64,000 bases of DNA from assembly GCF_044647545.1 (NCBI RefSeq), contig NZ_CP172818.1; one strand, 5' to 3'. The position numbers were made by a program, and so were the translations under genes. This DNA is from Escherichia coli (GTDB lineage: Bacteria; Pseudomonadota; Gammaproteobacteria; Enterobacterales; Enterobacteriaceae). The notes beneath the pieces were generated by a model that was not told the origin of the DNA, searched no databases, and worked only from the letters and a program-made list of their open reading frames with translations. Each line of letters begins with the position of its first letter. The first letter of the stretch is position 1. Of the stretch, positions 33,686-37,826 are shown one piece after another.

Positions 33686-33723
33686 AAGAAAAACGGGTCG
33701 CCAGAAGGTGACCCGTTTTTTTA
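33686..33723. terminator. Bidirectional rho-independent terminator between convergent nupG and speC
   Basis: AAAAACGGGTC...GACCCGTTTTTTT, hairpin flanked by A-run and T-run. Confidence 0.8.
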
Positions 33724-36233: not shown

Positions 36234-36962
36234 ATGCAGCTAACAGGAACTCTTGTGGTCATCGGTCCTTTTATCAACGCAAGTGCAGTATTACTGGGTG
36301 GCGTTCTCGGTGCACTCCTTAGTCAACGCTTACCGGAACGTATCCGCGTCTCCATGACATCAATTTTTGGTCTGGCATCGCTGGGGATTGGTATTTTACT
36401 GGTGGTGAAATGCGCCAACCTTCCGGCGATGGTTTTAGCAACCTTACTCGGTGCATTAATCGGCGAAATGTGTCTGCTGGAAAAAGGGGTCAATACCGCG
36501 GTCACCAAAGCACAAAATCTGTTTCGCCACTCACGTAAGAAGCCAGCGCATGAATCTTTTATTCAGAATTATGTCGCGATTATTGTCCTGTTTTGCGCCA
36601 GCGGCACCGGGATCTTCGGGGCGATGAACGAAGGGATGACCGGCGATCCGAGTATTTTAATCGCCAAGTCATTTCTCGATTTCTTTACGGCGATGATCTT
36701 CGCCTGCTCGCTGGGTATTGCGGTGTCGGTGATTAGCATTCCATTACTGATCATCCAGTTAACACTGGCGTGGGCTGCCGCGCTGATATTACCGCTGACC
36801 ACACCGTCGATGATGGCAGACTTCAGCGCCGTAGGCGGTTTATTGCTGCTGGCAACCGGATTACGCATCTGTGGCATTAAAATGTTCCCGGTGGTCAACA
36901 TGCTTCCAGCACTCCTTCTGGCAATGCCGCTTTCCGCCGCCTGGACCGCCTGGTTTGCCTGA
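36234..36962 (+). CDS. yqgA: DUF554 inner-membrane protein YqgA
   Basis: 242 aa hydrophobic ORF immediately upstream of pheV. Confidence 0.85.
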   Translation: MQLTGTLVVIGPFINASAVLLGGVLGALLSQRLPERIRVSMTSIFGLASLGIGILLVVKCANLPAMVLATLLGALIGEMCLLEKGVNTAVTKAQNLFRHSRKKPAHESFIQNYVAIIVLFCASGTGIFGAMNEGMTGDPSILIAKSFLDFFTAMIFACSLGIAVSVISIPLLIIQLTLAWAAALILPLTTPSMMADFSAVGGLLLLATGLRICGIKMFPVVNMLPALLLAMPLSAAWTAWFA

Positions 36963-37067
36963 CAATGCGTGCAATAGCGGCAAAGTGATGATAGATTGTG
37001 CAGTCTGCAGTAAATTGAAGAAATTTGATTGACGAGACGAGGCGAATCAGGTTTAATGCGCCCCGTT

Positions 37068-37143
37068 GCCCGGATAGCTCAGTCGGTAGAGCAGGGGATT
37101 GAAAATCCCCGTGTCCTTGGTTCGATTCCGAGTCCGGGCACCA
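37068..37143 (+). tRNA. pheV: tRNA-Phe (anticodon GAA)
   Basis: GCCCGGATAGCTCAGTCGGTAGAGCAGGGGATTGAAAATCCCCGTGTCCTTGGTTCGATTCCGAGTCCGGGCACCA, canonical cloverleaf with 3' CCA. Confidence 0.97.
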
Positions 37144-37154
37144 ATTCATAAGAA

Positions 37155-37182
37155 CCCGCCCACAAGGCGGGTTTTTGCTTTT
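37155..37182 (+). terminator. Rho-independent terminator of pheV
   Basis: CCCGCC-CACAA-GGCGGG followed by TTTTTGCTTTT. Confidence 0.85.
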
Positions 37183-37288
37183 GGATCTGACAATAACCTT
37201 CACGAAAAAAATTAGCTTATAAAGTCTGGGGGAATTACTCTCGCCACGTTAACGAGAGTAATTTTATTGATATTAATCTCCTGATACC

Positions 37289-37825
37289 TTACCCCCGTCC
37301 AAACTCCAGTCGCTGCACATTCACCATCCCAGGCTTCTCAGCAGCACTGACATCAATTTGTGTCACCCGCAGCGCATATTTTTCATCCAGTGCTTTTAAC
37401 CAGTTCAGCAGGTCATTAAACACCACAGGTTCTATCCAGACTTGAATATTCTCCCCACGCTCGGCTATCCGCTTGATGACCACCGAGTGCGCGGAAGCAC
37501 TGTCACTGATGACCCGCGATACCTGCGCAGGCGTTGTTGTGGCAGATTTTCGCGCTGCAATAATATCCGGCGCAGTGCTCTTCAGTCGCGCGTTCATCGC
37601 CACGAGCTGCTGCAACATCGTCTCCTGTTGCTCAATCCGTTCGCTCAACGGCTGCCAGATGACGACGTAATATCCGACGCTAAACAGGAACACCACCGCT
37701 GCCAGTAACATGCCCTTTTCACGCGGAGAACGCCCCGCCAGGTGTTGTGTCAGCCAGTGTTCGCCACGGCTTAACTGGCGTTCACGCCATTGCTGAAAAT
37801 AGTGAATAAATTTATCGCGTAACAT
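37289..37825 (-). CDS. yghD: Type II secretion GspM-like protein (cryptic)
   Basis: 178 aa ORF, position downstream of pheV. Confidence 0.8.
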   Translation of the reverse strand: MLRDKFIHYFQQWRERQLSRGEHWLTQHLAGRSPREKGMLLAAVVFLFSVGYYVVIWQPLSERIEQQETMLQQLVAMNARLKSTAPDIIAARKSATTTPAQVSRVISDSASAHSVVIKRIAERGENIQVWIEPVVFNDLLNWLKALDEKYALRVTQIDVSAAEKPGMVNVQRLEFGRG

Positions 37826-37826
37826 G

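Follow-up and report, generated by a model that had tools for sequence, protein, structure and literature searches.

A hairpin beyond the pheV terminator of Escherichia coli: chromosomal backbone and a candidate fail-safe terminator facing yghD

Behind the tRNA gene pheV and its terminator T1, the stretch of DNA that we analysed (64 kb in all, hereafter the window) carries a second hairpin, HP2, which is part of the chromosomal backbone and is independent of the islands that occupy pheV. We put the probability at roughly 55% that HP2 serves as a weak, leaky fail-safe (tandem) intrinsic terminator, catching read-through from pheV and limiting antisense transcription into yghD. HP2 is an ordinary and essentially known feature, since it is present in K-12 and its RNA 3' end is tabulated in published supplementary data. 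It offers a concrete, testable case of a tRNA gene facing a convergent operon and backed by a weak second terminator.

The pheV-yghD spacer and its second hairpin

The features of the region, in window coordinates, are:
37068..37143, plus strand: pheV, tRNA-Phe(GAA) (ARAGORN; Rfam tRNA match, 68 bits)
37149..37185, plus strand: T1, the canonical pheV intrinsic terminator, with its stem at 37149-37177 and its tail reaching about 37185 (consensus scan)
37189..37288, no strand assigned: A+T-rich backbone segment of 100 bp holding HP2 (single copy in 2512/5426 E. coli genomes)
37233..37263, plus strand: HP2, a perfect inverted repeat with 11-bp arms and a 9-nt loop (sequence, folding, repeat scan, arm invariance)
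37264..37276, plus strand: U-rich tail of HP2, TTATTGATATTAA (equals the K-12 RNA 3'-terminus peak 3110565-3110577)
37289..37825, minus strand: yghD, GspM-like, type II secretion beta cluster (ORF list; RefSeq annotation of matching E. coli genes)
37377..37388, plus strand: further K-12 plus-strand 3' terminus, 3110678-3110689 (Bar et al. 2023, Supplementary Data 3)

The gene yghD closes the type II secretion beta cluster and lies on the minus strand, so it and pheV converge on a spacer of 145 bp. The layout is the same in K-12 MG1655 (pheV 3110366-3110441, yghD 3110590-3111126), where no feature is annotated between the two genes. The operon to which yghD belongs shows little expression in K-12. 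T1 consists of a G+C-rich stem (AACCCGCC/GGCGGGTT), a loop of 5 nt and the tail TTTTTGCTTTTGG; its stem-loop has a folding energy of -13.6 kcal/mol and its terminator score is positive.

HP2 starts about 48-56 nt past T1, and 26 nt separate it from the yghD stop codon. Its left arm is AATTACTCTCG (37233-37243), its loop CCACGTTAA (37244-37252) and its right arm CGAGAGTAATT (37253-37263), with TTATTG directly 3' of the repeat (37264-37269). The first-pass annotation of this DNA had described a second inverted repeat after the pheV terminator, and the perfect 11-bp arms bear this out. The 10-bp arms that it gave, ATTACTCTCG / CGAGAGTAAT, and its spacing of about 50 nt after T1 were both correct, as was its TTTTATT run, which lies at 37262-37268 and so reaches 3 nt past the end noted for it (37265). 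A U-rich tract follows the hairpin on the plus strand only (TTTATTG, five T in seven, after a 10-bp stem); the corresponding minus-strand tail is CCCCCAG, with the U-tract absent.

Folding of the region, as the same annotation had proposed, showed that HP2 folds on both strands beyond shuffled controls. The plus-strand fold that includes HP2 reached -16.6 kcal/mol (z -3.0; equalled in 2/200 shuffles) and its minus-strand counterpart -16.1 kcal/mol (z -4.3; equalled in 0/200). Taken alone on the plus strand, the HP2 stem-loop has an energy of -12.0 kcal/mol, with G-C pairs at 4 of its 11 positions. A d'Aubenton-Carafa-type terminator score was -17 for HP2 versus +5.7 for T1. A simple consensus terminator scan with a loop limit of 8 nt did not call HP2, since its 9-nt loop exceeds that limit and only four of its pairs are G-C. 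An Rfam 15 scan of 36500-38000, with E values up to 10, returned the tRNA only and nothing over 37233-37263 at gathering score. A promoter scan found no promoter-like site between T1 and HP2, which makes an independent small transcript unlikely.

A count of perfect inverted repeats of this size (arms of 11 bp or more, loops of 3-12 nt) gave three loci in the 64-kb window, versus 0.27 expected from dinucleotide shuffles. Up to 3 mismatches allowed, the full 31-nt HP2 motif still has a single copy there. One of the other two repeats, AAGCCGGATGAT...ATCATCCGGCTT (46192-46222), has 12-bp arms. The other, AAAAACGGGTC...GACCCGTTTTT (33689-33720), lies directly after speC with A- and T-runs on both sides, and from this pattern it looks like a bidirectional terminator.

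Some features of the surrounding DNA are particular to this window. The tRNA CCA is followed by ATTCATAAG (37144-37149), where K-12 and all other sequences examined have CTAATTCTTAAG or CTATTCTAAAG; relative to these, the window lacks 3 nt and carries a T>A change at 37149. A comparison of 37068-37300 with 5426 complete E. coli genomes gave a best full-length match of 97.9%, of the K-12 type and 3 nt longer, and for the 2.5-kb region the best match reached only 97.3%. On these figures the window may stem from a source beyond those genomes, such as Shigella or a different Escherichia lineage. Beyond yghD (37827-39748), the window encodes a 297-aa GspL-like ORF and a 331-aa YghF (GspC-type) ORF, the order in K-12 being yghD, yghE, yghF. 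These reading frames suggest a reduced secretion cluster of the K-12 type.

RNA 3' ends in K-12 and the role of HP2

K-12 and the window are identical across HP2 and its tail. In K-12, Bar et al. 2023 (PMC10687069) mapped a plus-strand 3' terminus to 3110565-3110577, with 3110570 dominant, labelled it pheV-yghD intergenic and drew for it a fold that is exactly HP2. The dominant position is the G of TTATTG, 6 nt past the stem (window 37269), and the peak as a whole corresponds to window 37264-37276. The terminus was recovered in two RNAtag-seq data sets, each with three replicates (PMC10687069, Supplementary Data 2 and 3), namely the authors' LB libraries, all three of them significant, and their re-analysis of an independent data set. 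Adjusted p values were 5e-18, 2e-20 and 1e-42 in one set and 4e-7, 2e-7 and 1e-11 in the other (PMC10687069). A further plus-strand end, at 3110683, lies antisense inside yghD, 113 nt past 3110570 (PMC10687069), which indicates that some transcripts pass HP2 and that HP2 is leaky. The sequence at that site (37377-37388) contains a T5 run, and the stem predicted there is weak (-8.8 kcal/mol).

A second published data set describes how much transcription enters the spacer. The curated Term-seq table of Adams et al. 2021 (PMC7815308) lists the mature tRNA end only in this region and no 3' end at HP2, and their Rho table includes position 3110486, which is the end of T1. Coverage upstream and downstream of 3110486 was 4606/50 without bicyclomycin and 3667/293 with it (PMC7815308); the former ratio implies that about 1% of the signal passes T1. 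The Rho score at this position was 7.36 (p 3.6e-54), and inhibition of Rho raised downstream coverage about 7-fold (PMC7815308), in windows of 800 nt within which HP2 read-through and bicyclomycin-induced antisense starts inside yghD are not separable. This effect of bicyclomycin shows Rho to be a further restraint on transcription in the pheV-to-yghD direction. The supplements of TERMITe have no entry for pheV or yghD. Overall, the Rho effect and the end found 113 nt further on indicate that much of the read-through is stopped by means other than HP2.

Intrinsic terminators consist of a stable stem-loop, usually G+C-rich and with a loop of 3-8 nt, and a U-tract immediately 3' of it, and rrnB T1-T2 are tandem fail-safe terminators of this kind after stable-RNA genes. 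The end of pheV resembles the rrnB arrangement in that a heavily transcribed stable-RNA gene runs directly into a strong first terminator, behind which, within about 50 nt, stands another hairpin on the same strand with a U-rich tail and mapped RNA 3' ends. It differs in the A+U-rich stem of HP2, where 4 of the 11 pairs are G-C, and in its 9-nt loop, and HP2 falls below the usual thresholds. Terminators between convergent genes, including bidirectional ones, were reportedly described by Ju and colleagues in 2019. The 145-bp spacer between pheV and yghD is similar to such sites, being A-rich on one side and U-rich on the other and folding on both strands, but its U-tract serves one direction only and no minus-strand 3' end is documented for it.

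The case for HP2 as a fail-safe terminator thus draws on its U-rich tail, present on the plus strand only, on the K-12 3' ends 6 nt past its stem and on the read-through of T1. We also count in its favor that the promoter scan was empty between T1 and HP2, that the arms do not vary in 42 sequences (see below) and that other hairpins of its size in the window stand at gene ends, for example that at 33689-33720 after speC. The case is weakened by the A+U-rich stem, by the large loop, by a terminator score that is negative where that of T1 is positive, by the negative consensus scan and by the lack of an HP2 end in the curated Term-seq table. The proposed sequence of events would begin at a very active pheV promoter, from which a small fraction of transcripts would escape the strong T1. 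These transcripts would run about 85 nt further and fold the 11-bp HP2 stem, and transcription would then end in the U-rich tail just past it, so that less antisense transcription would enter yghD and the type II secretion operon. The mapped 3' ends would accordingly come from termination rather than trimming, the transcripts bearing them would probably have started at the pheV promoter, and the benefit would be the insulation of yghD. The first-pass annotation had raised the idea of a tandem or second terminator here, and it gains support from the strand-specific tail and from the K-12 terminus at 3110565-3110577, directly after the stem.

The main rival to the fail-safe terminator is that HP2 does not stop the polymerase at all, with Rho terminating transcription downstream, in antisense yghD, and 3'-to-5' exonucleases trimming the RNA back to the stem. 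We regard this as possible though, on balance, unlikely. The K-12 data do place a Rho termination region after T1, with the score and significance given above, and Adams et al. 2021 (PMC7815308) hold that Rho-terminated RNAs are trimmed to processed ends. Trimming would also accommodate the second plus-strand end 113 nt downstream, as well as the weak score and large loop of HP2 as an intrinsic terminator. Against it, the 3' end falls 1-13 nt past the stem and inside a U-rich tract, the classical arrangement for an intrinsic terminator, and the 800-nt Rho windows mix read-through of HP2 with antisense starts that bicyclomycin induces inside yghD. It is more doubtful still that HP2 is in essence a stem-loop of the yghD 3'-UTR, stabilising or ending the operon mRNA on the minus strand, with its plus-strand activity a by-product; such a role might also coexist with a terminator. 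HP2 would be well placed for it, starting 26 nt past the yghD stop codon, and the minus-strand RNA does fold better (14 pairs and a 3-nt loop, -15.4 vs -12.0 kcal/mol, z -4.3). Moreover, when alignments were inspected by eye, the alleles of strain 1190, E69 and E. whittamii, which are described below, each had a GGTGAG.../...CTCACC repeat shortly past the yghD stop. The minus-strand stem is followed, however, by CCCCCAGAC and not by a U-tract, and Bar et al. 2023 report no minus-strand 3' end here in K-12, which is a weak test given the poor expression of the operon.

Two other proposals fare less well. Perfect, invariant 11-bp half-sites with centres 20 bp apart would suit an operator, that is, a DNA-binding site for a dimeric protein, but HP2 is flanked by the ends of two convergent genes and has no promoter-like site close by, the mapped RNA 3' ends coincide exactly with its tail, and neither the window nor the genome holds a second copy that would suggest a regulon. 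We find an operator hardly credible. It is also a long shot, if a marginally better one, that the trailer of about 128 nt from the CCA end of pheV to HP2, capped by T1 and HP2, is a stable functional RNA, acting as a sponge of the 3'ETS type or regulating the 3' end of yghD in antisense. RNAs of the 3'ETS-leuZ type derive from tRNA 3' external transcribed spacers. The pheV trailer is similar to them in that it would be a read-through trailer enclosed by two stable stem-loops, with a 3' end that can be detected, but differs in having no Hfq-linked interaction support: sRNA prediction tables based on RIL-seq list pheV and the yghD-yghF spacer and no RNA from the pheV-yghD spacer. Were the trailer functional, the capsule locus described below would remove that function in capsulated lineages.

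HP2 in the backbone and at the ends of pheV islands

The segment at 37189-37288 was found in 2512/5426 complete E. coli genomes (46%), at 95-100% identity, always on the chromosome and once per genome (median one place across the 2512 genomes). The empty site, with pheV, T1, HP2 and yghD contiguous, accounts for about 1540-1580 genomes; in the remaining ~950, the segment and T1 are present together, apart from pheV. Phage genomes, viral contigs and true plasmids gave no match to the segment. A lone 'plasmid' match proved to be a 4.8-Mb record, evidently a chromosome.

Variation within HP2 was assessed in 42 sequences, comprising 36 metagenome contigs, five E. coli genomes and the window. The metagenome search pattern was fixed on the flanks and open over the hairpin itself; 36 of its matches were genuine copies and 2 arose by chance. 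All 22 arm positions were invariant in 42/42 sequences, and the sole change in the hairpin was a C>T in the loop; among the other spacer positions, about 10/80 varied in the same sequences. The invariance of the arms suggests constraint, at a P of about 0.05 that is not significant and among sequences that are related. It also means that no compensatory arm changes occur among the 42 sequences.

We also considered HP2 as a dispersed palindrome of the REP/BIME or ERIC kind and rejected this, there being one copy in the window and a median of one per genome across 2512 genomes. The likeness is that of a short perfect intergenic palindrome between convergent genes; HP2 differs in being single-copy, without an Rfam match, and A+T-rich versus the G+C-rich REP consensus.

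The last 22-23 nt of pheV are the attachment core of pheV islands, and in other strains a partial repeat of them, TTCGATTCCGAGTCC-GGCACCA, stands at the far ends of islands. We compared island strains in three genomes (an O111:H2 strain, strain 103605 and UMNF18) and numerous metagenome contigs. In these, the tRNA 3' end recurs as an imperfect repeat of 22 nt, and T1, the spacer and an unchanged HP2 follow it. The distal island repeat (22-23 nt) therefore lies upstream of T1, with HP2 about 90 nt beyond it in unchanged backbone, which places HP2 outside the island boundary and leaves it the same with or without an island. Indeed, HP2 is identical at empty sites and at the far ends of islands. 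These island ends agree with the LAA island, published with 23-bp imperfect repeats and with yghD adjoining the distal one (PMC5539235). Another strain, EPEC E2348/69, which expresses the secretion operon, has an integrase island at pheV.

The first-pass annotation had wondered whether the second hairpin marks an island or attachment-site scar. We find this barely tenable. The idea has some appeal in that pheV is a known island hot spot, that the A+T-rich segment occurs in just 46% of genomes, and that insertion sequences occur in or beside it (IS679 in UMNF18, IS1A in STEC2018-553). The boundary repeat, however, consists of the final 22-23 nt of the tRNA and stands upstream of T1, HP2 is identical at empty and occupied sites, and the segment is single-copy, with no match among phages, viral contigs or true plasmids. 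Within the window itself, no second copy of the pheV 3' end was found, even with 3 mismatches, and the ORF list shows no integrase adjoining pheV. HP2 does share its locus with the tRNA-linked attachment sites of islands (pheV, P4-type integrases), and in island strains its segment adjoins the distal tRNA 3'-end repeat. It differs from them in lying about 90 nt outside the repeated core, in being unaffected by islands and in being absent from mobile-element collections. The same annotation had also reasoned that an ordinary terminator should be conserved regardless of island content; this held for integrase-type islands and failed at the kps locus, where the whole segment is replaced.

For the mapping of pheV islands, HP2 and the surrounding 100 bp are best treated as backbone, forming the right-hand flank beside yghD, with the island boundary at the 22-23-nt tRNA-end repeat upstream of T1.

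Some copies of T1 carry stem-weakening changes at the equivalents of 37159 and 37171 (locus L007 and metagenome contigs), either a G>T in the 3' arm or a missing C in the 5' arm. The G>T was found in sequences whose T1 follows a distal island repeat rather than an intact tRNA, and the 1-nt C deletion likewise solely in copies after a distal island repeat.

Other alleles of the spacer

A further ~1500-1700 genomes match the window up to 37188 on the pheV side, and their match restarts at the yghD stop codon. Four of these genomes were examined, and in each (4/4) the gap holds an IS110 remnant and the kps capsule cluster. Strain 1190, for example, has the IS110 remnant and kps, about 17 kb together, exactly between 37188/37189 and the yghD stop. 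The kps capsule locus thus replaces precisely the interval that begins just past T1 and runs to the yghD stop codon and, judged by these alignments, the HP2 segment and kps behave as alternative alleles of one spacer. The pheV site has been published as bounded by 'kpsF or gspM/yghD' (PMC7686366), and a spacer filled by kps fits those bounds. At the junction with kps and its IS110 transposase remnant (L002, 1369-18438), the yghD stop codon is changed from TAA to TAG.

A third allele, likewise without HP2, came from a YghD search of the genome collection, which returned two loci, in E. coli E69 and in E. whittamii. Its divergence begins within the last five yghD codons. No tRNA lies within the retrieved flank of these loci (L004, 1835-2130; L005, 3495-3790), and the third allele and the yghD-side flank of the kps allele have the motif GGTGAGTG in common.

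Insertion sequences were also seen at the HP2 segment itself. In UMNF18 (L006, 4001-4056), IS679, of the IS66 family, splits HP2 right after its left arm. In STEC2018-553 (L050, 3001-3145), which carries an SPI-7-type element at pheV, IS1A lies 14 nt past HP2, and yghD through most of gspC is deleted.
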